In this document: positions 6,256 through 32,602 of the stretch, in pieces
Numbering within the stretch: position 1 is the stretch's first letter
How the letters are laid out: the number at the start of each line of letters is the position of its first letter
DNA from: Candidatus Omnitrophota bacterium
GTDB lineage: Bacteria; Omnitrophota; Gorgyraeia; B26-G9
Length of the DNA: 64,000 nucleotides
Direction: 5' to 3'
Assembly (NCBI GenBank): GCA_043805415.1
Contig: JAZDHZ010000034.1
Location: forward strand, 101,478 to 165,477
Translations under genes and position numbers: made by a program
The notes under the pieces: model-generated
What the model was told of the DNA's origin: nothing
Seen by the model: the letters and a program-made list of their open reading frames with translations, nothing else
Database searches by the model: none

Positions 6256-9200
6256 ATGTTTTTTAGAAAAAGAAATAGTTATCGCGTTAAAATCACAACT
6301 TTTATTATTTTACAGTGTTTTATAATTATAAATAGTCAAAGTATTTTTGCCCAGGAACAGCGGATTGTTTTAAGCCGCCAGCAAACAAGTACTCTTTCTC
6401 CGCACTTAAGCATCGGAATGAACTTGATTCAAGCAATTTTTTCCGAAAAAAGTCAACAGCCGATTGCCGCATCCAATCTTCCCGGAACACTGATATCATT
6501 GCGTGATACCGGAAGTATCAAAGAATTATTAAGCGGCAAAGACGTATTTTTGAATGACCTTTGGGCTAGAAAAACCTTAGGAGTACCCACGGCAATCAGT
6601 AGCCTGCGCAGTGAAGATAATAATTTTGATTTATGGGATTGGGGAAAAGGGGACATGGGTGAATCCAGCCGCCAGCATATTTTATGGTTAGCCAAGAATG
6701 GCTTTTCCCGCTGGATGCGCTTACCTAACCGGAAAACCCGGGCTTTATTCGGAGACCCCAGCCCCTATGCTTCACGCAGCGCGTTTGCCGGGGAAGATTC
6801 GGATATTGCTGTGCCGGAAGTGGAGGAATTTATTAATTCAAAACAAGCGCAGGCTTGGTATGAGCAAAATAAAAACCGGATTAAGGATTTACATAATGCG
6901 AATAGAGTAAATGGAATGGAAGTAGCGAGATTGAAAAATGAGGCTTTGTGGCTGGCAATGGAGTATTTTAAAGAAAATCATTTAAATAAAAATACTTCGC
7001 GCGGTAAAGCTTTTGATAGTTTTTTAAATGATAAAGATAATGACTGGGTAAGTGAATACGCGGAATATATGGCCATAAGCGAATATTACTGGGATACAAA
7101 AAAAGCTGTTTTTTTTGAGATAAATGAAGATATCTGGTCAAACATCGACCAAAAATTAAAAGGCCTGGTGCATGACCTGAACGTGGCCATAAGCACTGAT
7201 AAAATTAAAGATGTCGGGCGTTTATATGAAATGATTGATGATTTTTTCGCGCAGTATTACCAGAATAGTATTGTGGCAAACGAAACCGATATCTTTAGAT
7301 TGAATATTTATCAGTCATTGCTGGACAAAATAAAACAGGGAATTTTAAAAGACCTTGTGCGGGGCAATATTAAATCGCTTGTTGAGGCAGATGAACCGGA
7401 ATGCGCGAAAATACTTTTGGATGGTTATGAGCGTTCCAAACAAGCGTTTCGCTATGATATCAAAGACGCGATTGGCCAGGAATGTATGGCTGACTGGAGA
7501 AATTGGGACAATGCCGGATTGGTGGAGCGCGATCCTATTGTTTTAGCCCAATTCCGGGAAAAACTGGAAGATAAAATATTGTTTCATAAGTACGCGCAGT
7601 TTATTTTTAATGAGCAGGAAAAAAACATGAAAGAATTTGCCAACAGCAATGGCATTGCCATAGAAGGAGATATTCCTTTTTATGTGTCAACCATAAGCTG
7701 TGAAACCTGGGTGTATAAAGATAAGATATTCCGGCTTGATCCGAAAAACCGCTATCAGCAGATGGCTGACAGCGGAGCGCCGCCAGACCAGTATGACCGC
7801 GAATACGGACAAAACTGGGGCGGGACTCCTTATTATATAAATGCGGCGTTTAAGCAATTTTTCTATAAACGCACAAAACATGAATTAAAGAACGCGGATG
7901 GTATCAGGATTGATCACTTCCGGGCGCTTAATGATTTCTGGGTAATTCCTCATGGCAAGCTTGGCCGGGACGGTAAGTTTGAAGATGGGCCAAAAGATGA
8001 ATTATTGCAGCCTTTGCTTAATCTGGCATTGGGACAGTTTAAACGTTTTTTTGCCGAAGATCTGGGCTCATATCTGGAAGGAGTCTGGGATCTGATGCGG
8101 GATAATGAAGTTAAGGGCTTTCGGGTAGCGATATTCGGCCATGGTGATGATGATGACATAGTTCATCGGCAATATTCCGGGCAGATTGCTTTTTCCGGCA
8201 CGCATGATACTCAGACCTGGTTTGGCGCTTGGAATCAATGGGATAGTGTTAAACGGAGAATATTCCTGGACAGGTTTACGCATGATGATATTCCGGAGAT
8301 TTGGCAGCGCTTAACATCTGAACAGAGAAAAGGGTTTTTAAAATACCTTAATTATTTAGTAAAGCAGTTAAAAGCAGATACAGCAAACATAAACAAACAT
8401 AGCGAGTTTCAATCTGAAAGCAAAGATTTTTTCACAGAGAATAATTTTAAAACGCAGTTGAAAAAAGTCCGCGTTATTACAAGGAGTTTGGTTGATCTTG
8501 AAGAATTGCCATTTGGCGTGCAAACCGCTGTTTTCGGAATCCTGGCTTTTTCCGAAGCAGATACAGTATTTCTGCCGATGCAGGATATATTCCGGCAGGG
8601 TGAAGAGTTTCGGATAAATGTTCCGGGCAGGCCCGGAGATTGGGGCTACCGCCATCCTTATACCGGACAGGAATTGAATAAAGCAATAAATGAAGAAATA
8701 AAAAAAGCTGATGAATTAATGCGGCTGCTGGCGCAAACTTCCGGCCGGGATGTTAGCGTGCCTTTGTACAAAAAAGGCCAAGGCGTGCATATTCTGGGTG
8801 TTTCTCCGGGTGTTAATGCCAAGAAGATGTGCAAACCAGGCGAGGAGTTTATTATCTGGGCGGCAGTACAGGGTGATAAACCAGCTAAGGTTAATCTGCT
8901 GACAAATATGCCTGAGCATAATGGCGCGTATCCTAAAGAACAGGCAGTGGCCATGGAATTAGTAAAAGAATTAAAGAGCGGAACCTATCTTTATGGAGTA
9001 AGAATAAGAGCAACACAGCCAGGCAAATGGGGAGTCGCGGTTGAGGCGGATAATGTAAGAGCCGGAGAGGTTAAGGAGAATACCAGTCTGGTTGTAAGCG
9101 CTTTGGATAAAATAGCGCCTTTGGCTAAAGAACAAGAAGCTGTGCTGCGGATCGCGGCCGGGATTTCCAAGGAAAAACTGCAAAGGATTTTAAATGAGTT

Positions 9201-11184
9201 GAATCCTGATTTGGCGCAGGCCCTGCGGCAGGCATTAAAAAATTATCAGGTAGAATATGCCGGTAATGATGAGGAAAAAATCATTAATCCCAGCGGACTG
9301 GATAAAGATTTATTATATGCGAATGTGAATTTAATCCGCGAAAAATTACTTAACCTTGATTACCAACAGTTAATCAAGGAAAATTATCCTGCTTTGAATA
9401 ATAAACTTATTGCTGAGTATATGAACAGGTCGGGATGGTATTCCGCGGCAGTGCCAAATAAAATAGCGCAGACTTTGCTTAATATCGCGGTTTTACCTGG
9501 AAATCCAGAGTCTGTTATGGAAAGTCTTACCACTATTCTTGGCCACGACAACACTATTAGCGGGGAAAAGCGGGTATTATTAGATCAGGCGTTTGCCAAT
9601 GCCGCCGCGATTGCTCATGACTCGGTATTTAGAAAAGGAGATTTGTTTGTCTTAAACAAGTTTAATGATCCTGAAGCTAATCAGAAGGTGCTGTCTTTTG
9701 CCCGGTATATGGGAAATGGCAGAAAGGCGATGGTAATCAGTAATTTCAATGACTCGCGCATTAACGGAACCCTTTTGCTCAATCAGCATAATTTTGACAA
9801 AATATTTAATATCTCCAGCACTCCAGGCAGTTATTATGCTTTGATTGACAGGGTAAGCGGAGAAATATACCTGCGTGAAGGAAAAGATTTGATCGCGCAT
9901 GGTTTGTATTTTGATCTTCCGGCTCAGTCCACGCATGTTTTTATGGTTCAGAGTTTACAGGATAATACAGCCAATGTTTTGCGGTCTAAATGTAATTATT
10001 ATAATGGCAAATCTCTGCCGCTGGAAGAAATTCTTTCGCTATTAAATAATTTTGGGCTGACTTTGGATTTTCCCTGTGTGGGAAAAACAGCGCGGGCTTT
10101 TGTTCTCCAGGGTCTTTTAAACAATGTTCCGGCAAATCAATTGATCCAGGCTTTTAAAAACAATCCGGAAATCAAGATAATCGAATTTGGGTTAAACCCG
10201 GCGGAAATCGCCGCTGAGATTAGCAAATTAGCGCAAGAGTATCAAGCTGATAAGCAAGTTCAGGCTTTATGCCAGGGCCTGCGGTTTTTAAATCAAAGAG
10301 GAGCATTAAATGAAATAAATCTTGTCCTGGTTTTAAATCAGGACAAAACATCAGTTGAGGCTGTTCAGTATTTTGATCATGGTTCAAAAAGCAGGAAAAG
10401 TTATTTGTATGTTAATTTGTCGCGGCTGAATCTGGATTCAAATAATAATTCTGAAACTAAACTTTCCGCCGCGTTAATAATCGGCGCGCGGATATCACGC
10501 CAAGGGTCGATCGCGGATTATGAATTAAGCCGAACCCTTAAAGCATTTTTAGCGCTTTGGGCGCGAGACGACGCGACTTTGCCAGGGTTAATCGACAGTG
10601 AACACAAAAGGATAAAAGGCATGTTGGAATATCTTGAAACAAATCTTAATTCAGTAATAGATGAATGGAAGCTGCCGTTTCATTATAACCTGGGACATGA
10701 TACGCTGTTAAGCCACTCTTTAAGGCGCGTAGTCATGGATTTGTTTTTAAAACAAAATACTGATAATCAAGTCAGTTTAGCCACTGTGCATAATTTTGCT
10801 TATTTCTTGGCGTATTATTTGGCTGATTCCGGACAGGCAGATAAGCTTCGCGATATTTTGCTTCAAGGATTTTCTGGAAAAAAAGCATCTTTTTATGAAC
10901 AATATTTTCTTACCAGCTTTATCTCCGGAGCACTGGTTTTAAGGGACAGCAGCATAGACGCGATTTTTATTGATTTACTGGAAAATCCTTTGCCGCAAAC
11001 GGATCTTGCCTTGCGGGAAAAAATTATAAAAACAATGTGCGGTCTAAACCGTTTTGATTTAAAATTAAACAAAATCTCAGTCAAAGAGTTGGGGGCGGTT
11101 CTCCAATCCGGCAAAGCTATTGAATCACTTCCTGAGGCAACAGTCGCGATCAGGCAGTATCAGGCGATTGGACAGGCGATTTAA
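6256..11184 (+). CDS. giant secreted protein (1642 aa): an N-terminal GH77 4-alpha-glucanotransferase (amylomaltase-type) catalytic domain fused to a C-terminal region of about 900 aa with unknown function
   Basis: Signal peptide. GH77 signatures: GDIPFYV, GAPPDQYDREYGQNWGGTPY, GIRIDHFRAL, AEDLGS and GTHDTQT. The C-terminal two-thirds has no recognisable motif. The C-terminus ends in the conserved IGQAI. Confidence 0.8.
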   Translation: MFFRKRNSYRVKITTFIILQCFIIINSQSIFAQEQRIVLSRQQTSTLSPHLSIGMNLIQAIFSEKSQQPIAASNLPGTLISLRDTGSIKELLSGKDVFLNDLWARKTLGVPTAISSLRSEDNNFDLWDWGKGDMGESSRQHILWLAKNGFSRWMRLPNRKTRALFGDPSPYASRSAFAGEDSDIAVPEVEEFINSKQAQAWYEQNKNRIKDLHNANRVNGMEVARLKNEALWLAMEYFKENHLNKNTSRGKAFDSFLNDKDNDWVSEYAEYMAISEYYWDTKKAVFFEINEDIWSNIDQKLKGLVHDLNVAISTDKIKDVGRLYEMIDDFFAQYYQNSIVANETDIFRLNIYQSLLDKIKQGILKDLVRGNIKSLVEADEPECAKILLDGYERSKQAFRYDIKDAIGQECMADWRNWDNAGLVERDPIVLAQFREKLEDKILFHKYAQFIFNEQEKNMKEFANSNGIAIEGDIPFYVSTISCETWVYKDKIFRLDPKNRYQQMADSGAPPDQYDREYGQNWGGTPYYINAAFKQFFYKRTKHELKNADGIRIDHFRALNDFWVIPHGKLGRDGKFEDGPKDELLQPLLNLALGQFKRFFAEDLGSYLEGVWDLMRDNEVKGFRVAIFGHGDDDDIVHRQYSGQIAFSGTHDTQTWFGAWNQWDSVKRRIFLDRFTHDDIPEIWQRLTSEQRKGFLKYLNYLVKQLKADTANINKHSEFQSESKDFFTENNFKTQLKKVRVITRSLVDLEELPFGVQTAVFGILAFSEADTVFLPMQDIFRQGEEFRINVPGRPGDWGYRHPYTGQELNKAINEEIKKADELMRLLAQTSGRDVSVPLYKKGQGVHILGVSPGVNAKKMCKPGEEFIIWAAVQGDKPAKVNLLTNMPEHNGAYPKEQAVAMELVKELKSGTYLYGVRIRATQPGKWGVAVEADNVRAGEVKENTSLVVSALDKIAPLAKEQEAVLRIAAGISKEKLQRILNELNPDLAQALRQALKNYQVEYAGNDEEKIINPSGLDKDLLYANVNLIREKLLNLDYQQLIKENYPALNNKLIAEYMNRSGWYSAAVPNKIAQTLLNIAVLPGNPESVMESLTTILGHDNTISGEKRVLLDQAFANAAAIAHDSVFRKGDLFVLNKFNDPEANQKVLSFARYMGNGRKAMVISNFNDSRINGTLLLNQHNFDKIFNISSTPGSYYALIDRVSGEIYLREGKDLIAHGLYFDLPAQSTHVFMVQSLQDNTANVLRSKCNYYNGKSLPLEEILSLLNNFGLTLDFPCVGKTARAFVLQGLLNNVPANQLIQAFKNNPEIKIIEFGLNPAEIAAEISKLAQEYQADKQVQALCQGLRFLNQRGALNEINLVLVLNQDKTSVEAVQYFDHGSKSRKSYLYVNLSRLNLDSNNNSETKLSAALIIGARISRQGSIADYELSRTLKAFLALWARDDATLPGLIDSEHKRIKGMLEYLETNLNSVIDEWKLPFHYNLGHDTLLSHSLRRVVMDLFLKQNTDNQVSLATVHNFAYFLAYYLADSGQADKLRDILLQGFSGKKASFYEQYFLTSFISGALVLRDSSIDAIFIDLLENPLPQTDLALREKIIKTMCGLNRFDLKLNKISVKELGAVLQSGKAIESLPEATVAIRQYQAIGQAI

Positions 11185-11185
11185 T

Positions 11186-14100
11186 ATGTCAGGAATTTTT
11201 AAAACTAAAATTTTAAATAGATTTCTCTGTCTGGTTATTTTGCAGATATTTCTTGTTTCCAATTTTTCCTGGGCCGCGGATGATTTGCGCGCGAATGATT
11301 TAGTTTATTCCAGCGCAACGCTTTCTCCTTCGCTTCAAATCAGCGCTGATGCGCTAAAACAATATTTTGCCCAATCCTTTGATTTAAAAACCGCGGCAAA
11401 TATAGATCCGGTTATAAAAGATATTTGCTTAGAGCTGTATAAGGCCAAGGATAAAACCACAAAAATAGAAGTTCTGGCCCTTGAGCAAGGCTATAGAGTA
11501 AAGATCAGGACTCAGAGCAATACGCCGCTTGTTTTACATTGGGGGTTTAATAATTGGCAAAAGCCTTTTAAGGAAATCTGGCCCCAGGCAGAGAATATCC
11601 GCACTTATTTTGATGAGCAGACCAAAGCAATGCGGACCATAGTCGAGGCTTCAGCTGAGGGAGATTATGTTTTTAATATTGATATCCCCTGGGAATTAGT
11701 TTCAGGAATAAACAATATTGATTTCACCTTCTTTTGCCCAGAAACCAAAGAATATAAGAAAGCAATTGAAAATAAGGATTATGTTGTGCCGGTTTCTAAT
11801 GTCTTGAACCTGGCCTTGGCGCGCTTGGCTGAAAATGCCGGGGCAGATGATCCTGAAAAAAAGCACGATCTGCTTAATTTGATAAACAAAAGGCTGGCTG
11901 CGGCCAAAGATTCAGCGGAAATAGATGAAAACAATATTCCTTTGTTTTATGACGCGCATGAAAATATTATTACCCAGATTGTGAAAAACAAAGCAGGAAT
12001 CAGAATTGATTTCTGGGTTGTAAGTAATGAGCCGCTGGTTTTACATTGGGGAATAAATGATTGGCAGTTGCCGCCAAAAAGCATTTGGCCGGACCGGACA
12101 TTATATAAAACCCGGGCTTATGAAAAAAAAGCAGTGCAAACTCAGATGCATTTGGCTTCTAAAGACGGTTTGTACCAGACCTCGATTTACATCCCTAACC
12201 AGAATTTAAAAGAAGTTAAAAACATCAAGTACAATGTACATTATCCAAATAATGGGTATTGGGATAATAATAATGAAGAGGATTATAGTTTATCGCTGCA
12301 AGCCCAGGATCTTATAGCCGCTTTGCTGCCTTACGCGACAGGCAGATTCGCTGCCCACATAAACGCCAAACAAGCTCGCGGCTTGTTAAAGAACATGGCG
12401 TTTTTCTACGCTGAGAATATGAATTACACTGATTTGTTAAAGCTTTTTCAGGGGATGGAAGGCATTGCCCCTGGGGATGATCTTGAAAAAAAAGATGTTT
12501 TGGGATTAATCCTTATTGCCAAATTAATGAACGAAGGCGCGGTTTGGGATAGTGACAAAGCTAAGATTATTATCAGTAAACAAAAGATCAGCGCCGCGAT
12601 AGCGGAGTTGATTGATAAACTTGACCCCTTAAGTGTGCAGTGGGCATTATATATATTCGGACTGCTTGACCCTTCCTGGGTCTCAATCCTTACGCATCAG
12701 CTTGATTATAAGCAGATATACCAGGATGTGCAAAACAGCAAGATCAAAGACCTGCCGAAATTTATCCAAGGGATAATCAACAGTTATGATGATTTGGAAG
12801 GAGCGCCGCAGGTTCTTTCCGCTGAGAGTATTGATGAAACCTGCCTGATCATAAAATTGAAATTCAATGATCAGATCATCAGTACAAAATGGGGCTATCC
12901 GACAAAACAGCAAAAGTATTATTATCAAAATGGGATTTTTGAACTAAGAGATTTCGGGGGAAATGAATTTTCGCCGGTAGGCCGTAAGCTTTCGCGTTAT
13001 GTGGATAAAGAAGTGATAAAAACCCAGATCTCCAGGCTGCGTGGCAAAGGCAAAAAGGCGATTGTTGACGGAATTTCCTGGCAGTCTCCGGAAGCGCTTA
13101 ATTCGGATAATTATATGTATTATCATCATAGTCTGCTGGAAAAAGACGCGGATGTCAGGAATTTATTGCTTTCCCGTGGTTCTTCCACGATCTTAGAACT
13201 TCCGGACGGGAAAAAAGCCTGGGTATTTCATCGGCCTGATTCATCAGATCAGCTTTCGCCTAATCTTAAATTCGGAACAAAGGCAGCGGAATACTGGAGA
13301 AATTATTGGCTGGAGTATTATAAATATTTTATCAATGAATTTGACGTGGATGGATTCAGGGTGGATTTACCCGGAGAGTTGAATCATCATGGAGATTATT
13401 CGGTATTTAAGAGTGTTTGTTTTGATATAGTGCGGTACGCGGCGGCAAAAGGCAAAAAAATATATTTTATTTTAGAAACATATCATGGGTACGCGAATAT
13501 CTGGGGCTGGGATGAGTTTTCCGCGTTAAATCATGATCCGCAGATAGCGCAATACGGCTATAAACCTTTCCGCTGTTATTATAAGCCGGTAATGACCAGT
13601 ATTTACCGCGGCAGCGCGTTTGATCTAAGAGCTGCTTTTGAACGCATAGCCGGCAGTGTTCAGGAATTGGTTATTTCAATTACTAATTTTGACGAGAAAA
13701 AAGCCGAGGATATTATTCCTGAAAAACAAAGGCTTAAGCGTTATATGGAGCTTTTGTATAATTTTGCCCGCGCGGGATTTGATGTAATGATTTATTTACG
13801 GGATTTAGGTCTGGGCGATATTTTGCCGATGTGCGGCGGAGATCGGGTTCTCTGGGGCGGAAAGCTGAGGGTTGTGGCGCATAAGCCGGCTACTCCGCGT
13901 CAGTTTCGGCAGAGATTGGAGCAAAGCACAGGCGATTTGCTTGAACAATCTCCTTTATATCAGGCGTTTAAAAAATCGCCGCAAAGCCCCTTATCGCGGC
14001 TGTTCTTCCGCGGCAATAAGTTAGTTTTTTATCAGCCGGGAAAAACTCCGGAAGTGTTTGATCTGGATAAGATGGCTAAGCCTGCTCCACCGGTAAAAGT

Positions 14101-15142
14101 TATGGACAGTGAGGAGGATATAAATATTTGGCTGCAGCAGCAGGTTTATTCATTAACAAATAATGAGCCGCAAACCCAAGCCTTAAGAGAAATTGAAAAT
14201 ACTTTAAAACGATTTAAGCATAGTGCAAGTGCAATGGCGGGAAAAGCTGTTTTGGCTCTGGTCTGTTCTGAGACTAAGAATTTCGCGGTTTGGGATCAGG
14301 CAAAAGGCCAAACTCAATGCCTGCGCATGCCGGTAAATAAAGTATTGGCCATAAAAAATGACCATGCTTTTGTTGTGGATATTAAACAAGCTGGCAAAAG
14401 CGAATCCCGCAGAATCCCGGCGCTGCAAATCAAGCAAAGCGGCAAATATTTGGCAATGGTTTTTGGCTTGGCTCCGGGTAAATACAGGTTTAATTTTTTG
14501 TGGCAGGAAAAACATGAAAACCAGGGCTGGGAAGAAGGCAATGGCTATGAGCTTGAAGTCAGTTCTCCGAAGACCGGGCAACCAGAGCTGGCGGTCTATA
14601 TCCCGCGTTTATCCGCTGAATATTTAAGGGATTGGGATGAAATGTTTTATCAGGCAAAAGATGCTGGCCGCAATCTGCTGACCGGAGATATGCTTACAAA
14701 GGGAATGCTTGAAAATATAGAATCCTCGATTGATTTTACCCTGCGTTATGAGTATGGCCGGGAGATTTTAGAACAAATTAAAGACAAAAAGAAAAAGCAG
14801 GTTTTCAATATTTTATATAATCAAATTTCGCAAAACCCGCGAGGCCGATACAGTTTACTGCATCATCACCATGAAAAAGATTTTTTTAAATTAGCGGAAA
14901 CTGTGCTTGAGAGTATCCCGGGTTTAGCAAGACCAGAGGCAGCCCCAATATGGCAATATTTGGACGCGCTCAAACAAGCGGATAATCCTGACCAAGGAGA
15001 ACAAAGCCAAATAGCCGTAAATATAAAACTGCTTGGTTTTATGTCTGGTTTGTTCGCGCAGATCGAAGCCCTGTCCGCGGCTAAACCCCTTGAGCTTTGG
15101 CTTAATATTGAAGCGGAGTTTTTGATTGGACAGGCAATATAG
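11186..15142 (+). CDS. giant secreted protein (about 1318 aa) with two tandem starch-binding-like repeats (LHWG(F/I)N(N/D)WQ motif, CBM45/CBM25-like) and a GH13-like region (DVDGFRVDLPGE, ILETYHGY); putative alpha-glucan-active enzyme
   Basis: The start is the ATG at 11186, 2 nt after the stop of the previous gene. The listed ORF start at 11120 overlaps that gene and has no RBS. Motifs were recognised by eye. The C-terminus ends in LIGQAI. Confidence 0.5.
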   Translation: MSGIFKTKILNRFLCLVILQIFLVSNFSWAADDLRANDLVYSSATLSPSLQISADALKQYFAQSFDLKTAANIDPVIKDICLELYKAKDKTTKIEVLALEQGYRVKIRTQSNTPLVLHWGFNNWQKPFKEIWPQAENIRTYFDEQTKAMRTIVEASAEGDYVFNIDIPWELVSGINNIDFTFFCPETKEYKKAIENKDYVVPVSNVLNLALARLAENAGADDPEKKHDLLNLINKRLAAAKDSAEIDENNIPLFYDAHENIITQIVKNKAGIRIDFWVVSNEPLVLHWGINDWQLPPKSIWPDRTLYKTRAYEKKAVQTQMHLASKDGLYQTSIYIPNQNLKEVKNIKYNVHYPNNGYWDNNNEEDYSLSLQAQDLIAALLPYATGRFAAHINAKQARGLLKNMAFFYAENMNYTDLLKLFQGMEGIAPGDDLEKKDVLGLILIAKLMNEGAVWDSDKAKIIISKQKISAAIAELIDKLDPLSVQWALYIFGLLDPSWVSILTHQLDYKQIYQDVQNSKIKDLPKFIQGIINSYDDLEGAPQVLSAESIDETCLIIKLKFNDQIISTKWGYPTKQQKYYYQNGIFELRDFGGNEFSPVGRKLSRYVDKEVIKTQISRLRGKGKKAIVDGISWQSPEALNSDNYMYYHHSLLEKDADVRNLLLSRGSSTILELPDGKKAWVFHRPDSSDQLSPNLKFGTKAAEYWRNYWLEYYKYFINEFDVDGFRVDLPGELNHHGDYSVFKSVCFDIVRYAAAKGKKIYFILETYHGYANIWGWDEFSALNHDPQIAQYGYKPFRCYYKPVMTSIYRGSAFDLRAAFERIAGSVQELVISITNFDEKKAEDIIPEKQRLKRYMELLYNFARAGFDVMIYLRDLGLGDILPMCGGDRVLWGGKLRVVAHKPATPRQFRQRLEQSTGDLLEQSPLYQAFKKSPQSPLSRLFFRGNKLVFYQPGKTPEVFDLDKMAKPAPPVKVMDSEEDINIWLQQQVYSLTNNEPQTQALREIENTLKRFKHSASAMAGKAVLALVCSETKNFAVWDQAKGQTQCLRMPVNKVLAIKNDHAFVVDIKQAGKSESRRIPALQIKQSGKYLAMVFGLAPGKYRFNFLWQEKHENQGWEEGNGYELEVSSPKTGQPELAVYIPRLSAEYLRDWDEMFYQAKDAGRNLLTGDMLTKGMLENIESSIDFTLRYEYGREILEQIKDKKKKQVFNILYNQISQNPRGRYSLLHHHHEKDFFKLAETVLESIPGLARPEAAPIWQYLDALKQADNPDQGEQSQIAVNIKLLGFMSGLFAQIEALSAAKPLELWLNIEAEFLIGQAI

Positions 15143-15160: not shown

Positions 15161-15937
15161 TTGCATTCCGCGCTAGAACTATTTATAATAGTAAACATGT
15201 CAAATTCTTCTGAGAAAAAACTGATTCCTTTTCCGATTTTAATCATCTCGATTTCCGTCGGGGTGCTGGGCGTGCTCCTGGCTTTTGATCTGCCGCCGGT
15301 GAGCGCTTATGAGCGGCAGCTGCTAAAAGACTTGATCCTGATCCTGCTATTTATAATCTTTTCCTATTTTATTCTGCGCGCACCAATTAAAAAAATCAGA
15401 GAAAAAATTTTTACAATCGTAAATAATAAGCTTTTTGATTCAAAGAAAATCACGGCCTTAATTCCCGAGGATTTTGCTCAGGAGATAGTCAAAGAAAAAG
15501 GATTCGCGTTTTGCTATCCAAAGACTTGGTTTCTTACCGCTGCCTGCGAACCTGGTTTGTATAAAGAAGCCAGAGAACAGCTGCTTGAGCCGGGGATCAG
15601 CGGAACAAGAAATTTTAATATTTCTTATCATGATATCCGGCTTGCTCCGGACCTGGAGAAAATGTTTAAAGCGATTATTAATGCCGTGCTCGAGGTTTTA
15701 AAATCCTCGAAGCTTGAGTTTAAGCAGAGCTTTAAGAATGATCAATTTCTCGGCATGCGCTATAAAGTAGTTTATCGAAATGCGCAAGGATTAGACTTGG
15801 CTTGCTACCAAGTGGTGCTTACAAACCAGCATAAGCGGAATATGCTGATCTTTACCTTTACTTCCCAGACAAATGATTTTGATAAATCAAAGCCTTTATT
15901 TGATAAAATCGCCGGTCTGGCAAAAATCTTCGATTAA
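15161..15937 (+). CDS. hypothetical membrane protein. The true start is possibly the ATG at 15197 (MSNSSEKK).
   Basis: Two predicted TM helices after the N-terminus; no recognisable domain. Probably co-transcribed with the upstream giant genes. Confidence 0.4.
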   Translation: MHSALELFIIVNMSNSSEKKLIPFPILIISISVGVLGVLLAFDLPPVSAYERQLLKDLILILLFIIFSYFILRAPIKKIREKIFTIVNNKLFDSKKITALIPEDFAQEIVKEKGFAFCYPKTWFLTAACEPGLYKEAREQLLEPGISGTRNFNISYHDIRLAPDLEKMFKAIINAVLEVLKSSKLEFKQSFKNDQFLGMRYKVVYRNAQGLDLACYQVVLTNQHKRNMLIFTFTSQTNDFDKSKPLFDKIAGLAKIFD

Positions 15938-16038: not shown

Positions 16039-17487
16039 ATGAAGAAAATTCTGGTTTTATTAAGCTTTTGTTTATTGGTTAATCTGAACGCGAATGCGAT
16101 TGCTTTGGCTGGCGAAGAGACAAGCACGGCTTTAGATCAAAAACAAGTGGCGATTACGATTTACAATAATAACCTGGGCTTAGTTAAAGATGTGCGGGAG
16201 ATTAAATTAAGTTCCGGCGTGCATGATCTGAAATTCATGGATGTGGCCAGTCAAATCAGGCCGGTGACAGTGAATATAAAATCATTATCCGCGCCGGATA
16301 AACTCTCTGTGCTTGAGCAGAATTATGAATATGATCTATTGAACGCGCAAAAACTTTTGGATAAATATGTGGGCAAACAGGTAAAACTATTGGATAAAAA
16401 TTATTATACCGGTAAAGAAGAAATAGTAACCGCCGAGCTTTTAAGTAATAATGGTTCGCCAATATACAAAATTAATAATGAGATCCAGGTTAATCCTTTG
16501 GGCCGGATAATTCTCCCGGAGATTCCGGATAACTTAATTGCCAAGCCCACGCTGATCTGGATGTTGAAAAACAGCAATCCCAAGCAGCAGGATATTGAAG
16601 CCTCGTATTTGACTAATGGGATTAACTGGAAGGCTGACTATATCGCGGTGATTAATCAGGATAATACAATCGCGGATTTAAGCGGCTGGGTTACGATTGA
16701 GAATAATAGCGGAGCAACATATAAAAATGCTCAGATAAAACTGGTTGCCGGAGATGTAAACCGGGTGCAGGAAGATCGGGGTTATGCTGGCCGGGCAAAG
16801 GCAAGCAGGATGATGGAACAAGACGCGGTGAAAAGCTTTGCCGAAGAAGCGTTTTTCGAATATCATTTATATACATTGCAAAGACAATCGACAATTAAAG
16901 ATAATCAAACCAAGCAGCTCGAATTATTAAAAGCAATGGATATTCCGATCAATGAAAAATTGATTTATTATGGAGCGGATTATTATTTCCGCAACCAGTA
17001 TACCGGACAGGCGCAGTCAAAGGAAAAAATCGGGGTGTTTTTGGAAATTGAAAATAAGCAGAAAAATAATTTAGGCATGCCGCTTCCGGCCGGAGTTATC
17101 CGCGCTTATAAAAAAGATAAAGAAGGCAGTCTGCAATTTATCGGAGAAGATAAAATCGATCATACTCCTAAAGATGAGAAAATCACAATTAAAATGGGCG
17201 ATGCTTTTGATGTAGTTGGAGAAAGAAAACAGCTGGAGTATCGGATTCTTTCAAAAAACGCCGCGCAGCGTTTTGATACAGAGCAGCAATGGCAGATCAA
17301 GCTGCGCAATCACAAGGAAAAACCAGTGGAAGTGGAAGTTGTTGAGCCGATTCCCGGAGACTGGCAAATAGTTAATGCTTCGGAAAAATATATTAAAACC
17401 GAAGCCAATACCATTAAATTTGTGGTAAAATTAAATAAAGATGAAGAAAAAACAATTGATTATCAAGTAAAAATCAGATACTGGTAA
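16039..17487 (+). CDS. secreted DUF4139/DUF4140-family protein (TIGR02231-like)
   Basis: AAGGAGG RBS and signal peptide. The N-terminal block VAITIYNNNLGLVKDVREIKLSSGVHDLKF resembles the DUF4140 N-terminal signature. Confidence 0.45.
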   Translation: MKKILVLLSFCLLVNLNANAIALAGEETSTALDQKQVAITIYNNNLGLVKDVREIKLSSGVHDLKFMDVASQIRPVTVNIKSLSAPDKLSVLEQNYEYDLLNAQKLLDKYVGKQVKLLDKNYYTGKEEIVTAELLSNNGSPIYKINNEIQVNPLGRIILPEIPDNLIAKPTLIWMLKNSNPKQQDIEASYLTNGINWKADYIAVINQDNTIADLSGWVTIENNSGATYKNAQIKLVAGDVNRVQEDRGYAGRAKASRMMEQDAVKSFAEEAFFEYHLYTLQRQSTIKDNQTKQLELLKAMDIPINEKLIYYGADYYFRNQYTGQAQSKEKIGVFLEIENKQKNNLGMPLPAGVIRAYKKDKEGSLQFIGEDKIDHTPKDEKITIKMGDAFDVVGERKQLEYRILSKNAAQRFDTEQQWQIKLRNHKEKPVEVEVVEPIPGDWQIVNASEKYIKTEANTIKFVVKLNKDEEKTIDYQVKIRYW

Positions 17488-17668: not shown

Positions 17669-20600
17669 ATGTATTTTAAAAAGCTCGAACTCTTTGGATT
17701 TAAATCTTTCGTTGATAAAACAACTCTTATTTTTGAACCAGGCGTAACCGCGATTGTTGGCCCCAATGGTACAGGAAAAAGTAATATTTCTGACGCGATT
17801 AAATGGGTATTGGGAGAACAAAGTGCCAAGTCTATGCGTGGGGCAAAGATGGAAGATGTTATTTTTAATGGCACAGAAACCCGCCCTCCGGTAAATATGT
17901 CAGAAGTTTCGCTGACGCTTTCTAATGAAGAAAGAGTTTTGGCGATTGATTATGATGAAGTAACTGTAACCAGAAGGCTTTATCGCTCAGGAGAAAGTGA
18001 GTATCTTCTTAATAAAACCCCGGTTAGGTTAAGAGATATAAATGAACTATTAATGGGCACTGGCATAGGCACGGAATCGTATTCTTTGCTCGAGCAGGGC
18101 CGGATTGACGCGATTATTAGTTCCAAGCCGGAAGAACGCAGAGTGGTGTTTGAAGAAGCCAGCGGCATTACCAGATATAAGAAACAAAAAAATGAGGCAA
18201 TGCGCAAGCTGCAGGCAACAGAAGAAAACCTTTTACGGGTTAATGATATAATTGTAGAGGTTAATCGTCAGTTAAATTCCATAGCGCGTCAGGTAAGTAA
18301 AGCGCGCCGCTTTCAGGAAAATTTTGATGAACTTAAAACATTAGATACGCAGTATACATACCTTCAATATAAACAGCTTAAGGAAAAAAATGATTTACTT
18401 GCCAGTGAAGAGACTGCTTTTCATGCTGAGCAGGCGGGATTAGAAAAAGAGCTTGCTGTTTTTTCTGAAGAGTTTGACGCCTTAAAAGTAACCCTTTCTG
18501 AAGTGGAACATAATTACAGTCACTTGAACAATCAATTTGTCAGGACTACTTCGCAGATTGAGCAGAATGTTCACGCTGTGTCCATTAATAATGAACGCAT
18601 CCAGGAATTCAGCCAAAGAGTGCGGGATTATAACCGCGATCTGGAAAACTCCCAAAAGAAAATCAAAGAACTGCAGGAGCAGATAAACCAACTGCAAATC
18701 CGGATTTCCGCTTTTTCCGACGAGAAAAGCGCGAAAGAACTTAATTTAAATTTACGCCAGACAACAATCGCGGAAATTGAAAACCAAATAAAACTCGCGC
18801 AAAAATCCGGAGAAGAAAACCGGATCGTGGCGGTAAAATTACTCAGTGAACACGCGCAGATTAAAAATGAACTGGCCAAGCTTTCGGCGAATATCAGCAA
18901 TGCTAACGCGCGCTTATTGCGGCTTAATCAGGAAAAAGCGAAAACTAATCAGGAACGCGAGAAGATTGACGCGGAATTAAAAAGCAAAATAGCGGAAGTT
19001 GAAAATTTAAGAGGTAAGGTTAATAAAGAAGAAGGCGACGCTCAGAATCTTAAAAATAATTATGAAGAGCTTAATACTCAGATAAAAGAGCTGGAAGTAA
19101 ATATCCAAGACAGCAAGCAAGCTTTAGTCGGCTGTAAATCCCAGCTGGAAATGCTGGAAAGATTGAGCAAGGAATACGAATGGTTTTCCAGCTCAGTGAA
19201 ATCATTTATGCTCCAAAAAGAAAACTATCCCGAAGCTTTTGCCGGAGTCCATGATGTACTGGTAAATCTTATGGAGGTAAAGCCGGGATATGAAGTTTGC
19301 GTGGAAACCGCGCTAGCCGAATACTTGCAGGCCGTTGTTGTTGATAGCCGACAAGTGGCTTTAAGGCTGAGAGAATTTCTTAATCAGCATAATATCGGCA
19401 GAATTCGGTTTATTACTCTGGATTCAATTCCGCAAATAGCTAATCAGCAGTCTCAGATTGAAAATACAAAGAATTTTTTAGAAGTAATTACCTGCGATGA
19501 TAAATACGCGAAAGTTTTAGCGTTTCTGGTTAAGAACACTTTTATTTTACAAGAAAATATTTTTGACAATCCGTCAAATCCTTTGACTAATATCAAAGAT
19601 ACGCTGAGTGCTGAGCCAGATGCTTCTGGCTTGCTTGAAGCTGAGCTTTTGTTTTCTTTTAAAACAAACGCGGCCAATAGCGTTAAAATAGTCGGCGATT
19701 TTAATCGATGGAATGCTTCTTTTGACAGTGATCTGGAACGCAAAGACACGGAGCTTTGGCAAAAGGTTCTAAAGCTCGCGCCAGGACGCTATACTTATAA
19801 GCTGGTGGTTGATGGCCAATGGATCATTGACCCGAACAATCCGCTTAAAGAAATAGATGTAAACGGACATGAAAACTCAGTTATCGAAGTGCTGGCAAAA
19901 TCCCAGGATGCTTTGGTTGCTGAGGCTGATAAGCCGGCGGCATTTGATTTTAATTTTCTGGAAACGCTGGTGAGTATGAGCGGCGAGCTGCATTCAACCG
20001 CGGGATTAATCAGCCGGCCGGTTGCTGACCAGACAACAGGCCTGTTTTATCAAAAAGCAAAAATAAGGCAGCTTAAGCAGGAAAGTGTCGGCCTGGAACA
20101 AGCCGTAGTTAAATATAAACAAGAAATCGACACTAAAATCCAGCAGCTTAAGTTTGTGGAAACAGAATTTACTCAATTAAATGATGCTTTGCACGAAGAA
20201 AAGATTAGTCTGGCGAATCGGGACTCGGAAAAATCCAGTATTGAAATAAACCGGAAAAAACTTGTGGATGAGCTTTTAGTCATTGATCTGGAAATTGATG
20301 AAACAACTCTTGATGTTCAGGAGTTTGAAGAAAAAGAAGCGGCTAAGAGAGCTAGGCTGAGCATTGTGGATCAGGAAATAGTCGGCAATGAACAGACAAT
20401 GGCAAGTAATCATCAATTGATCGGGATAAAAAACAAGGAGCGGGAAGAGCTTTTAGTTATTATCGCGGAAATGAAAACAGAATTTTCTTTGCTCAATGAA
20501 CAGGAAGAATCTTTAAATCAGAGTTTTTCAATGCTGTATAATACGCTCAAAGAATTAACCCTGAACTCGGAAGAATTTGTCCGGTATAAGGATGAGAGTA

Positions 20601-21625
20601 TAAAGCGGATCGAGGCGCTGACGATTCAGGTAAGTGAACTGAATAAATCCACGCTTGTCCTTGAGCAGGAAAAAGAAGAAATCGGCATGTCTTTAGAAGA
20701 ATTTAAAGAAAAACGCGGTCAATTATTAAGTAAATTTGAAGATATCCAGAATAAAATAAAAGAAAAAGAAAACCGATTAAATTATACCAAGAATCGGATT
20801 CGCGATATTGATGTTAAAAAAGTCGAGATGAATTTTAAAACCGAGTCATTGGTAAATTCAGCGAGGCAGGCTTATAAAATCGAACTGGAAACCCTGGAAC
20901 TTGAATTGCCGGAAGATATAGACTGGCAGGCGCGGAAAGAACAGATCGATGGTTTAAAAAATAAGATTGACCGGATTGGGGCAGTTAATCTGGCGGCAGT
21001 AGAAGAAGAGGAAGAATTAAGACAGCGCGCTGACTTTCTTAATAGTCAAAGCGAGGATTTGTTCGCGGCTAAGCAGACATTAATGCAGGCAATCCAAAAA
21101 ATCAACCGCACAACTAAAGCGCTTTTTCTCGAGACTTTTGAGAAATCAAAAATCGCTTTTAAAGAGTATTTCAAGCTTTTATTCAGCGGCGGCGACGCGC
21201 AGCTTCTGCTTACCGAGGGAAAAGATGTTTTAGAATGCGGGGTGGAAATCGTGGTGCGGCCTCCAGGCAAAAGACTGCAAAGCATAACCCTGCTTTCCGG
21301 AGGCGAGAAAACGCTTACGGCAATTGCCTTATTGTTCGCGATTTTTAAGATTAAGCCAACACCGTTTTGCGTATTAGATGAAATGGATGCCCCCTTAGAC
21401 GAATCGAATATTGATCGGTTCACCCGGGTTTTACAGGAATTTTTGAAAAGCTCACAATTCATAATTATTACCCATAATAAAAAGACTATTTCCATGGCGG
21501 ATGTTATGTATGGGGTAACAATGGAGCAGCCGGGTATTTCTCGGCTGGTGAGTGTGAAATTCAGCGAATTTAAAGACTCGGATAAATTAAAACAAGAGCT
21601 TATTCCTGAAGAAGCTATAATCTAG
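17669..21625 (+). CDS. smc: chromosome segregation protein SMC carrying an inserted AMPK-beta-type glycogen-binding (CBM48-like) module in the hinge region
   Basis: N-terminal Walker A FKSF...IVGPNGTGKSNI, long coiled coils, hinge (GVHDVLVNL...GRIRFITLDS), C-terminal LSGGEKTLTAIALLFAI...VLDEMDAPLD signature. Confidence 0.9.
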   Translation: MYFKKLELFGFKSFVDKTTLIFEPGVTAIVGPNGTGKSNISDAIKWVLGEQSAKSMRGAKMEDVIFNGTETRPPVNMSEVSLTLSNEERVLAIDYDEVTVTRRLYRSGESEYLLNKTPVRLRDINELLMGTGIGTESYSLLEQGRIDAIISSKPEERRVVFEEASGITRYKKQKNEAMRKLQATEENLLRVNDIIVEVNRQLNSIARQVSKARRFQENFDELKTLDTQYTYLQYKQLKEKNDLLASEETAFHAEQAGLEKELAVFSEEFDALKVTLSEVEHNYSHLNNQFVRTTSQIEQNVHAVSINNERIQEFSQRVRDYNRDLENSQKKIKELQEQINQLQIRISAFSDEKSAKELNLNLRQTTIAEIENQIKLAQKSGEENRIVAVKLLSEHAQIKNELAKLSANISNANARLLRLNQEKAKTNQEREKIDAELKSKIAEVENLRGKVNKEEGDAQNLKNNYEELNTQIKELEVNIQDSKQALVGCKSQLEMLERLSKEYEWFSSSVKSFMLQKENYPEAFAGVHDVLVNLMEVKPGYEVCVETALAEYLQAVVVDSRQVALRLREFLNQHNIGRIRFITLDSIPQIANQQSQIENTKNFLEVITCDDKYAKVLAFLVKNTFILQENIFDNPSNPLTNIKDTLSAEPDASGLLEAELLFSFKTNAANSVKIVGDFNRWNASFDSDLERKDTELWQKVLKLAPGRYTYKLVVDGQWIIDPNNPLKEIDVNGHENSVIEVLAKSQDALVAEADKPAAFDFNFLETLVSMSGELHSTAGLISRPVADQTTGLFYQKAKIRQLKQESVGLEQAVVKYKQEIDTKIQQLKFVETEFTQLNDALHEEKISLANRDSEKSSIEINRKKLVDELLVIDLEIDETTLDVQEFEEKEAAKRARLSIVDQEIVGNEQTMASNHQLIGIKNKEREELLVIIAEMKTEFSLLNEQEESLNQSFSMLYNTLKELTLNSEEFVRYKDESIKRIEALTIQVSELNKSTLVLEQEKEEIGMSLEEFKEKRGQLLSKFEDIQNKIKEKENRLNYTKNRIRDIDVKKVEMNFKTESLVNSARQAYKIELETLELELPEDIDWQARKEQIDGLKNKIDRIGAVNLAAVEEEEELRQRADFLNSQSEDLFAAKQTLMQAIQKINRTTKALFLETFEKSKIAFKEYFKLLFSGGDAQLLLTEGKDVLECGVEIVVRPPGKRLQSITLLSGGEKTLTAIALLFAIFKIKPTPFCVLDEMDAPLDESNIDRFTRVLQEFLKSSQFIIITHNKKTISMADVMYGVTMEQPGISRLVSVKFSEFKDSDKLKQELIPEEAII

Positions 21626-21657: not shown

Positions 21658-22851
21658 TCAGATAAATTCTGTGCTGAACATGCACACCCGATTTCTTCCG
21701 GTTTCTTTAGCTACATACAGAGCCTTATCAGCAAAAGCAATTAAATCATCTTTGTTCGAGGCATCCTGGGGAAAACTGGCGACTCCGATACTGATCGTGA
21801 TTCTTTTGGAAGGTTGTCCCTCTTTATAATGGCAAGGGTGAGCGGCAGTTAATTTTCTTATTCGCTCAGCAGAGGAATAAGCTTTTTCTTTAAATGTTTC
21901 CGGCAGAATAATCGCGAATTCCTCTCCGCCATAGCGGGCGACCAGATCAACTTCCCGGCAGGTGGACTGGAGAATTTCCGAGATTTCCTGCAATAATTTA
22001 TCTCCGGCCAAATGCCCCAGGCTATCATTAAATTTCTTAAAATGATCGATATCGATCATTAATAAGCTGACATGGCGGTTAAACCGGTTTGCTCTTTTAA
22101 CTTCTTCCGCTAATTGGTGCTGAAAATATCCATAGTTCCAAAGACTTGTCAGGCGGTCGGTGTTGGATAAGATAAGGGTTTTTTCAAATTCCTGAGAGTT
22201 GCCGATTGCCAGTCCGGCATTATTGGCAAACATAGTCAGTTTCCAGATATCATCTTTGGTAAGATCTCTTTTGGAATAGAAATTATCAACCAGCATTACT
22301 CCGAGAACCCGGTTTTTTGCCATTAAAGGAATCGTCAGACCGTATTCCATATTAAATAAGGAGATGATCGGGTCGTTTTTTTAAATTTGTTTTTTATACG
22401 TAGGGGTTATTATCTCAAACTGTTTTTTCTGAAGCACTGTTTGGGCTAAAATTCCCGAACTTGGATTAATCGGCAGCTTGATATTTTTAACATTATTATT
22501 AAAATGCGAATCCTGTTTGCGGCCGAATTCTTTATAATCTTTTAACAGCTCCTCAAGAGTTTTATGCGTGTTTTCAATAAACTCCCAAATATTTTTCGCG
22601 TCAGCTTCTGAATCAGGGCCAATACCCATCCGGCCTTCCAGGATATTTTCTTTCTCATTAACCAGAAAAACCATAGCCCGGTTAAACCCCAGGCCTTCGC
22701 CGGAAGTAACACTGGTAAGAATAATGTATAAAATTTCATCCAGCCTGAGAGTCGAGCTCATGGCCATGCTGATTTCATAAAGCATCAGCAGTTCGGCGTG
22801 ATATTTATCTTGTAGGTTTTTCGGTGTTTCTTCGATTGACATAGCCTTCAT
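21658..22851 (-). pseudogene. GAF-GGDEF diguanylate cyclase gene interrupted by a single in-frame TAA (complement of 22381-22383). GAF is split across the stop; the GGDEF domain has an intact GGEEF motif.
   Basis: The two minus-strand ORFs (22851->22381 and 22350->21658) are in the same frame and separated only by one TAA. The GAF domain continues across it (..KKQI*KNDPIISLFNMEYGLTIPLMAKNRVLGVMLVDN). GGDEF motifs: RYGGEEFAIIL and DHFKKFNDSLGHLAGD. Confidence 0.6.
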
Positions 22852-32560: not shown

Positions 32561-32602
32561 ATATTCTCTAGGGCAATATGATTGGGTAAATGGAACAAGA
32601 TA

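Follow-up and report, generated by a model that had tools for sequence, protein, structure and literature searches.

The 64,000-nucleotide stretch of DNA analysed here (contig JAZDHZ010000034.1, positions 101,478 to 165,477 of the forward strand, from the Candidatus Omnitrophota assembly GCA_043805415.1; hereafter the window) contains an smc gene whose predicted product carries a carbohydrate-binding module (CBM) of the CBM48/AMPK-beta type within its hinge. The gene is an open reading frame (ORF) at 17669..21625 on the plus strand and encodes 1318 residues. Judged by its domain matches, the product is a bona fide SMC with head, coiled-coil, hinge, coiled-coil, head architecture: Pfam SMC_N covers residues 3-1291 (240.7 bits), SMC_hinge (PF06470) matches residues 525-627 (84.3 bits), and the NCBIfam equivalog TIGR02168 (SMC_prok_B) scores 960.2 bits against a cutoff of 567.35. 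The protein, P0001 in our set, matches GenBank MFH1062768.1, encoded in a metagenome-assembled genome (MAG) of Candidatus Omnitrophota, at 100% identity. GenBank labels these SMCs merely as 'AAA family ATPase' or 'chromosome segregation protein SMC'. In this Omnitrophota clade, smc is single-copy and syntenic.

The hinge insertion and its fold

The whole insertion comprises 135 residues (residues 631-765; 19559..19963, plus strand, as for all smc features) and is flanked by the hinge strand NTFILQEN (residues 623-630) and the terminal strand TLVSMSGEL (from residue 766). The N-terminal portion of the hinge (residues 525-630; 19241..19558), delimited by Pfam SMC_hinge, the Thermotoga maritima hinge structure 1GXL, an AlphaFold2 model and Foldseek, ends in the first of these strands. 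It is followed by an acidic N-terminal linker (residues 631-657; 19559..19639) with five Asp and Glu against one Lys or Arg, by the folded core of the module (residues 658-741; 19640..19891), and by a C-terminal linker (residues 742-765; 19892..19963). The C-terminal portion of the hinge (residues 766-790; 19964..20038), recognised from 1GXL and the model, then resumes with the TLVSMSGEL strand and a hairpin that leads into the returning coiled-coil helix. Both linkers are unconserved and predicted to be flexible.

The SMC_hinge match covers profile positions 2-106 of 116 and ends there, which places the insertion near the hinge end, in lieu of a short helix and loop before the terminal hairpin. 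Likewise, 1GXL aligns in two blocks (query residues 7-122 and 281-325; phmmer E=1.4e-14), with its residues 13-124 pairing with the N-terminal and 166-210 with the C-terminal portion of the hinge; between the blocks lie 159 query residues versus 42 in the crystal construct. We aligned 40 SMCs from a homologue search, 23 with and 17 without the insert. The gap between NTFILQEN and TLVSMSGEL measures 102-138 residues in the former and 10-23 residues in the latter, and among the homologue matches listed no other SMC bears an AMPK1_CBM annotation. Compared with canonical SMC-ScpAB-type SMCs (TIGR02168; 1GXL, 5H69), the protein thus shares the full architecture, the equivalog-level score, the hinge fold and the syntenic slot, and differs in the 135 residues that replace the short helix and loop. 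A further difference concerns the C-terminal hinge motif, which reads GLISRP in the window (residues 779-784; 20003..20020), without the usual GG pair. The pair is also absent from the other insert-bearing SMCs and from insert-less close relatives (e.g. ELISRP, ELISKP), while distant Omnitrophota SMCs keep it. Since this loss is common to relatives with and without the insert, the hinge interface was already atypical in the lineage.

Several searches converge on the identity of the inserted module. In the full protein, Pfam AMPK1_CBM (PF16561) matches residues 667-744 (E=3.4e-13, 50.0 bits versus a gathering score of 26.8); in the excised segment the same family reaches E=1.3e-14 and 54.6 bits (versus 26.8), and CBM_48 reaches 25.5 bits (versus 22.4); matches of this strength greatly exceed what chance would produce. 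A search of PDB sequences returns the CBM chains of AMPK beta1 and beta2 (E about 2e-6), along with SEX4 and LSF1. The AlphaFold2 model, which spans residues 488-815 and was built from a 29-sequence alignment, has a mean predicted local distance difference test (pLDDT) score of 87.5, with hinge and inserted beta-sandwich each above 90 and the linkers below 50 (model residues 152-165 on the N-terminal and 260-269 on the C-terminal side). The C-terminal hinge is modelled as a strand at 279-282 followed by a helix at 305-327. The predicted template modelling (TM) score of 0.61 is consistent with hinge and module being two rigid bodies that lack a fixed mutual orientation. When this one model is compared with the PDB by Foldseek, it retrieves both SMC hinges (5h69 from G. 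stearothermophilus, E=2.6e-11; 1gxl, E=2e-10) and glycogen-binding domains, namely that of AMPK beta1 (1z0m_C; TM score 0.89 by target, root-mean-square deviation 1.5 A, 84 columns, 31% identity) and 4yef_B (TM score 0.84). That the SMC hinge carries a conserved, autonomously folding CBM48/AMPK-beta-type beta-sandwich on two flexible linkers of ~25 residues is, in our judgement, practically certain.

The original prediction, made from the sequence and its ORFs, had proposed just such a module in the hinge. The profile, PDB-sequence and Foldseek searches recover AMPK1_CBM/CBM48 as it anticipated, the confident fold of the modelled module (pLDDT >90; TM score 0.89 to 1z0m_C) agrees with it, and the alignment of orthologues bears out a clade-specific insertion. 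The three peptide strings it quoted all occur in the translation of the ORF, and its span for the module (19630-19890) is essentially exact. It erred in locating the insertion directly behind the hinge's first half, as about 90% of the hinge profile (106/116) precedes it.

The module also looks competent to bind sugar, in that the glycogen-binding residues of AMPK beta are preserved in it. Ligand-site residues were numbered by counting along the HMMER alignment to 1z0m (chain index i = residue 67+i). The equivalents of AMPK beta1 W100 (W681; 19709-19711), K126 (K711; 19799-19801), G147 (G733; 19865-19867) and N150 (N736; 19874-19876) are invariant in the 23 inserts, and that of W133 (W718; 19820-19822) is kept in 22, with Ala in P0016. 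The L146 equivalent (V731) varies. Altogether ten columns are invariant across the 23 inserts, ligand residues among them. N150 we take to be a glucan-contact residue, from the structure paper on 1Z0M/1Z0N. In the AMPK beta1 CBM, glycogen binding is lost in the mutants W100G and K126Q and reduced in W133L and G147R (PMC6274970). Relative to the CBM of AMPK, SNF1 and SnRK1 beta subunits (CBM48; PF16561; 1Z0M/1Z0N, 2F15), the SMC module thus has the same beta-sandwich, about 30% identity, the motif GxFNxW ... YKFxVDGxW ... GxxN and the five conserved equivalents. It differs in being bacterial, in having an SMC ATPase and no kinase scaffold as its host, in being an internal insertion on two flexible linkers outside a regulatory core, and in its variable L146 equivalent; besides, glucan binding is a prediction here.

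Conservation and history of the insertion

Among full-length insert-bearing SMCs, mean pairwise identity is 0.87-0.90 in the heads, 0.54 in the coiled coils, 0.51 in the hinge and 0.47 in the module, and falls to 0.06 in the N-terminal and 0.11 in the C-terminal linker. Constraint on the module is thus about equal to that on the hinge itself, whereas the linkers are constrained merely in being present, a pattern that suggests purifying selection on the module. One could instead regard the insert as a neutral passenger, tolerated by a permissive loop on the hinge surface and devoid of a selected function: among insert-less SMCs, the loop and short helix at this site already vary in length (10-23 residues), and the insert appears to have been lost at least twice with the gene kept. 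Yet a passenger would be at odds with retention throughout a clade in which SMC identity has dropped to 48%, with the similar identities of module and hinge next to unconserved linkers, with ten invariant columns that include ligand residues, and with 23 copies of which none shows a frameshift or decay. We consider a passenger very improbable.

The history of the insertion was traced in a neighbour-joining tree from which the insert columns had been removed (200 bootstrap replicates). Every insert-bearing SMC falls into one clade, within which two insert-less groups are nested. All 200 bootstraps place insert-less P0018 as the sister of the P0008 group, 190/200 place the insert-less group of P0020, P0021, P0023 and P0024 inside the insert-bearing clade, and in none of the 200 does an outgroup intrude into that clade. 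The most parsimonious reading of this tree is a single gain in the Omnitrophota clade followed by at least two losses. P0018 and insert-bearing P0008 share an identical gene order (fab cluster, acyl-CoA dehydrogenase, ETF, a 258-residue ORF, DUF4139, smc, and GAF-GGDEF on the opposite strand), which indicates orthologues that differ by an insertion or deletion. The possibility that the insert-bearing gene is an SMC paralogue was rejected on the strength of this synteny.

We also rejected the views that the segment came in recently by horizontal transfer or is a mobile element or intein: its GC content is host-like (0.425 versus 0.404), GC at third codon positions likewise equals that of the host gene, the CBM is its sole domain, and it is present clade-wide. 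When the module profile was run against representative proteins, it gave 17,711 matches at E<=1e-3, the best 150 of which were all multi-repeat CBM proteins. A scan of species-representative genomes with the same profile yielded a sample of at least 80 listed loci, and in three of these, all from this clade, the module sits inside an SMC. As a separate observation, the Omnitrophota SMC P0085 (1756 residues) contains an intein with LAGLIDADG and intein-splicing domains within its Walker A P-loop (between GPNGCGK and the following C), unrelated to the hinge insertion.

As to the surroundings of smc in the window, the genes upstream encode, among others, two giant proteins, a GH77 (4-alpha-glucanotransferase) fusion of 1642 residues (6256..11184) and one of 1340 residues (11120..15142) that contains the Ig-like domain found N-terminally in alpha-glucan water dikinase; over most of their length, both proteins lack a Pfam match. 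They are shared with just one other locus, that of the relative P0002, whose SMC is 79% identical and which has two GH77 genes upstream of smc. At the loci of P0008, P0017 and insert-less P0018, by contrast, no GH77 gene was found upstream of smc, and a fab/ETF cluster occupies this place. A functional link between smc and the GH77 neighbours was therefore rejected, their adjacency being limited to the window and P0002. The alpha-glucan genes near smc are a trait of the organism and have no conserved linkage to smc. The original prediction had seen an alpha-glucan theme in the window; the GH77 fusion and its neighbour are indeed there, but the theme is weaker than implied. Besides, a six-frame scan of the window with a hidden Markov model (HMM) of the inserts matched the SMC alone, and we accordingly rejected the idea that other proteins of the window share the module: no ORF other than smc carries a second copy.

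Directly upstream of smc lie the 258-residue ORF (15161..15937, no Pfam match) and a gene for a DUF4139 protein (16039..17487). This trio is kept in the window, P0002, P0008 and insert-less P0018, and so is the larger block that extends to GAF-GGDEF; at the P0017 locus the common genes are just fab/ETF upstream of smc and GAF-GGDEF downstream. In relatives, the GAF-GGDEF gene is a single ORF of 394-397 residues on the strand opposite to smc. Its counterpart in the window is split by one in-frame TAA at 22381..22383 on the minus strand, between the ORFs 22381..22851 and 21658..22350 (...TYKKQI, stop, KNDPII...), which may reflect either a nonsense mutation that made the gene a pseudogene or an assembly error. 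Further away, the window holds an ORF of 2986 residues (32582..41542), the sole Pfam match of which is a cNMP-binding domain at residues 2279-2363. Giant proteins are a known trait of Omnitrophota.

ParA-type ATPases with a sister module

Among the loci listed in the genome scan, the closest modules outside SMC lie C-terminally in ATPases of the ParA/MinD family, which are about 365-390 residues long. Carriers of this ParA-CBM fusion belong to Omnitrophota, Glassbacteria, Latescibacterota and Schekmanbacteria, and 119 of its 120 top homologue clusters hold both domain types. The genes lie outside the window, at L005:9137-10246, L010:6527-7621, L012:3212-4342, L057:9080-10249, L085:6001-7083 and L086:921-2027 (locus identifiers are those of our set). 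Their products keep the deviant Walker A motif (NQKGGCGKTT) together with the other ParA motifs. The nearest structures to the ATPase domain of P0278, the ParA-CBM of the window's putative genome, are a ParA family member (8ray, 3e-57), Thermus Soj (1wcv, 3e-41) and H. pylori Soj (6iub, 5e-41), and its match to a MinD structure is far weaker (4e-13). ParA-CBM48 proteins constitute a large and apparently undescribed family of Soj-type ATPases that reaches beyond Omnitrophota.

SMC-CBM and ParA-CBM occur together in at least seven genomes, one of them a verified assembly and the rest assigned by sample or accession. The verified case is GCA_024231215.1, which encodes SMC-CBM P0017 and ParA-CBM P0297. 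P0002 and P0279 derive from a common ENA sample, and in six pairs, P0002/P0279 included, the GenBank protein accessions of the two fusions are only 215-1502 apart. The window's own P0001 (MFH1062768) and P0278 (MFH1062553) are among these accession-adjacent pairs, so the window's own genome very likely encodes a ParA-CBM, too.

The two kinds of module resemble each other closely. Scored with the HMM of the SMC inserts, ParA-fused modules from these genomes reach 115-121 bits and other carriers 79-105 bits, compared with 107-132 bits for most SMC inserts themselves (P0022 is an outlier at 87). Within a genome, the ParA and SMC modules are 46-51% identical, while SMC inserts of different subclades share 42%. 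This kinship fits either a hinge insert copied from a ParA-fused module or co-evolution of both modules on one ligand. Probably, the module in the hinge loop originated as a copy of the CBM fused to ParA in this lineage, although a tree of 85 residues is too short to prove the direction.

ParA-CBM genes sit in a conserved block at L085, L005, L010 and L086/L087, which consists of a pilin-like (N_methyl) ORF, ParA-CBM, a ParA-like gene of 305-307 residues, an ORF of 219-233 residues, Cu-oxidase_4, DUF4912 and a GH57+BE_C branching enzyme. ParA-CBM and the branching enzyme are three to four genes apart, and the blocks span L085:5444-12415, L005:8581-16168, L010:6045-13068 and L086:180-8262. ManC precedes the block in L085, L005 and L010. 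ParA-CBM could be the chromosomal Soj encoded beside parB, yet in neither L005 nor L057 was a ParB gene found to adjoin it. The ORF directly downstream of ParA-CBM (L085:7107-8030; L022:10270-11112; L011:5053-5778) shows 23-24% identity across phyla and merely sub-threshold matches to CbiA, AAA_31 and ParA; it may encode a degenerate second ParA-like partner that takes the place of ParB or McdB. Like the McdA-McdB system of carboxysomes and the Soj/ParA-ParB systems of chromosomes, the putative partner of SMC-CBM is a Soj-type ATPase with a deviant Walker A motif and ParA/Soj proteins as its nearest structures. Unlike them, ParA-CBM fuses cargo recognition to the ATPase as a C-terminal CBM48 and has no adaptor of the ParB or McdB type, and beside it stands a divergent second ParA-like gene instead of ParB. 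In the case at hand, its gene also lies outside the window.

The scan turned up other carriers of the module as well. A Verrucomicrobiae locus (L024:8741-10624) encodes a Ser/Thr protein kinase that combines a PKD domain with two AMPK1_CBM modules, an arrangement reminiscent of AMPK logic, and a Pyrinomonadaceae locus (L016:8465-10276) encodes a beta-lactamase-fold protein with a C-terminal CBM.

A family of such reach, found in kinases, beta-lactamase-fold proteins and tandem arrays and in the thousands of representative proteins counted above, raises the question of whether the hinge module still binds storage glucan at all. Conceivably, it was exapted to recruit a protein (ParA-CBM, a loader or a membrane factor) or another polymer (a glycan or nucleic acid). 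The CBM of AMPK beta also forms protein-protein contacts, and its binding of glycogen debranching enzyme is reportedly independent of the glycogen-binding residues (PMC6274970); the L146 equivalent is unconserved, and the N150 equivalent is replaced by D in some ParA-fused copies. Against exaptation, however, the SMC inserts keep the solvent-exposed aromatic platform (the W100 and W133 equivalents, the latter in 22/23) as well as the K126, G147 and N150 equivalents, which is the signature of retained sugar binding, and the ParA-CBM gene is linked to that of a glycogen branching enzyme. On balance, we regard exaptation as unlikely.

A possible coupling of glycogen to the nucleoid

Two nucleoid-associated ATPases equipped with sister glucan-binding modules make a coupling of glycogen to the nucleoid, for the positioning or inheritance of granules, the best reading of these data. 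The original prediction had cautiously suggested that the module tethers the nucleoid to glycogen granules or senses storage glucan, and the ParA-CBM encoded in the same genomes near a GH57 branching enzyme lends this idea support from an independent side. We propose that SMC-CBM and ParA-CBM link glycogen stores physically to the chromosome, and give this mechanism an even chance of being correct. By homology, both parts of a tether, a CBM48 and an SMC, would be in place. An SMC dimer would display two modules at the hinge apex, roughly 50 nm away from the ATPase heads, where they could bind the alpha-1,4/1,6-glucan of glycogen particles multivalently, such that chromosome-loaded SMC-ScpAB would couple the granules to the nucleoid. 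The Soj-type ParA with the sister module might likewise attach to glycogen particles and the nucleoid simultaneously. Acting jointly, the two proteins would spread granules along the chromosome and into each daughter cell, and so keep them from clumping or from being driven to the poles. Glycogen synthesis has been inferred for most Omnitrophota MAGs (PMC8542988).

The same logic, one part on the cargo and one on the nucleoid, applies to PhaM of C. necator, PhaF of P. putida and PhaH of C. crescentus in the case of polyhydroxybutyrate (PHB), to AlgP of P. aeruginosa in the case of polyphosphate, and to McdAB in that of carboxysomes. Tethers of storage granules spread them along the chromosome and secure their inheritance (PMC3556143, PMC13052382). 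The PHB and polyphosphate proteins lack sequence homology to the fusions described here and use histone-like or helix-hairpin-helix DNA-binding tails, whereas in our proposal the nucleoid part would be the SMC complex and the cargo glycogen. In laforin, Stbd1 and the SEX4/LSF1 phosphatases, too, a module of the CBM20/48 type targets a function that is not carbohydrate-active to a glucan particle. Those proteins work on the glucan itself, in metabolism or autophagy, whereas here the host is a chromosome-organising ATPase.

Several points weigh against coupling. The L146 equivalent varies and the W133 equivalent is lost in one member, P0016. Given that the AMPK beta CBM makes protein contacts, the conserved surface could serve another partner. 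At least two lineages lost the insert, which marks it as dispensable. The adjacency of GH77 genes and smc is unconserved, five of the co-occurring pairs are assigned by neighbouring accessions, and SMCs outside this clade were surveyed in a sample. Glucan binding, SMC loading and the very presence of granules in these uncultivated cells are things we infer. Finally, bulky cargo at the hinge might interfere with SMC function.

A different role for a glucan ligand would be regulatory. In such an energy-state sensor, binding of glycogen or its branch ends would be relayed to the hinge dimer interface and tune how the hinge opens, entraps DNA or extrudes loops. Chromosome compaction or segregation would then follow the state of the carbon store, with no cargo being tethered. 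The fold and residues that the module has in common with the AMPK beta CBM speak for this, as does the allosteric inhibition of AMPK by glycogen via that CBM (PMC2642990, PMC6274970). The insertion, moreover, directly precedes the terminal hinge hairpin, the site of the dimerisation glycine motif in canonical SMCs. Two unconserved, low-pLDDT linkers of ~25 residues, on the other hand, offer poor geometry for allosteric coupling, and the co-encoded ParA-CBM fits positioning better than sensing. We deem a sensor quite unlikely as the explanation, even though sensing and tethering are not mutually exclusive. A reversed polarity strikes us as improbable: the glycogen granule would then be more than cargo of the nucleoid and serve as an organising hub for the chromosome in very small cells, on which the SMC hinge apex and the Soj-type ParA would dock. 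The granule would hold chromosome arms in place or give them their orientation, and it would contribute to driving segregation. As such, it would be a 'centrosome-like' landmark made of neither protein nor membrane, whose size would report carbon status.

Few parts of the chromosome-folding machinery are as conserved or as intensively studied as the SMC hinge, and glycogen is the most widespread bacterial carbon store. To our knowledge, no positioning or inheritance system has been described for glycogen. Full-text searches for publications on SMC hinges with CBMs or glycogen, on AMPK1_CBM with SMC, and on ParA-like proteins with glycogen and CBM48 returned no relevant one. A 2025 review on how bacteria position their organelles deals with PHB, polyphosphate, carboxysomes and magnetosomes but mentions neither glycogen nor SMC (PMC13052382). 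In E. coli, the allocation of glycogen between the two daughter cells is reported to affect replicative lifespan (PMC4836754).

In summary, an SMC with a putatively functional hinge insertion of this kind is new, and a role in an undescribed glycogen-positioning system is plausible. That a folded ligand-binding domain has been spliced into an SMC hinge and kept under selection, as the identities suggest, is unexpected, and the insertion provides a natural handle on possible uses of the hinge apex. Together with the Soj-type ParA-CBM48, the SMC-CBM48 opens bacterial glycogen partitioning to testing, even though the organisms are uncultivated. As the ParA-CBM48 family extends beyond Omnitrophota, the principle may be a general one.

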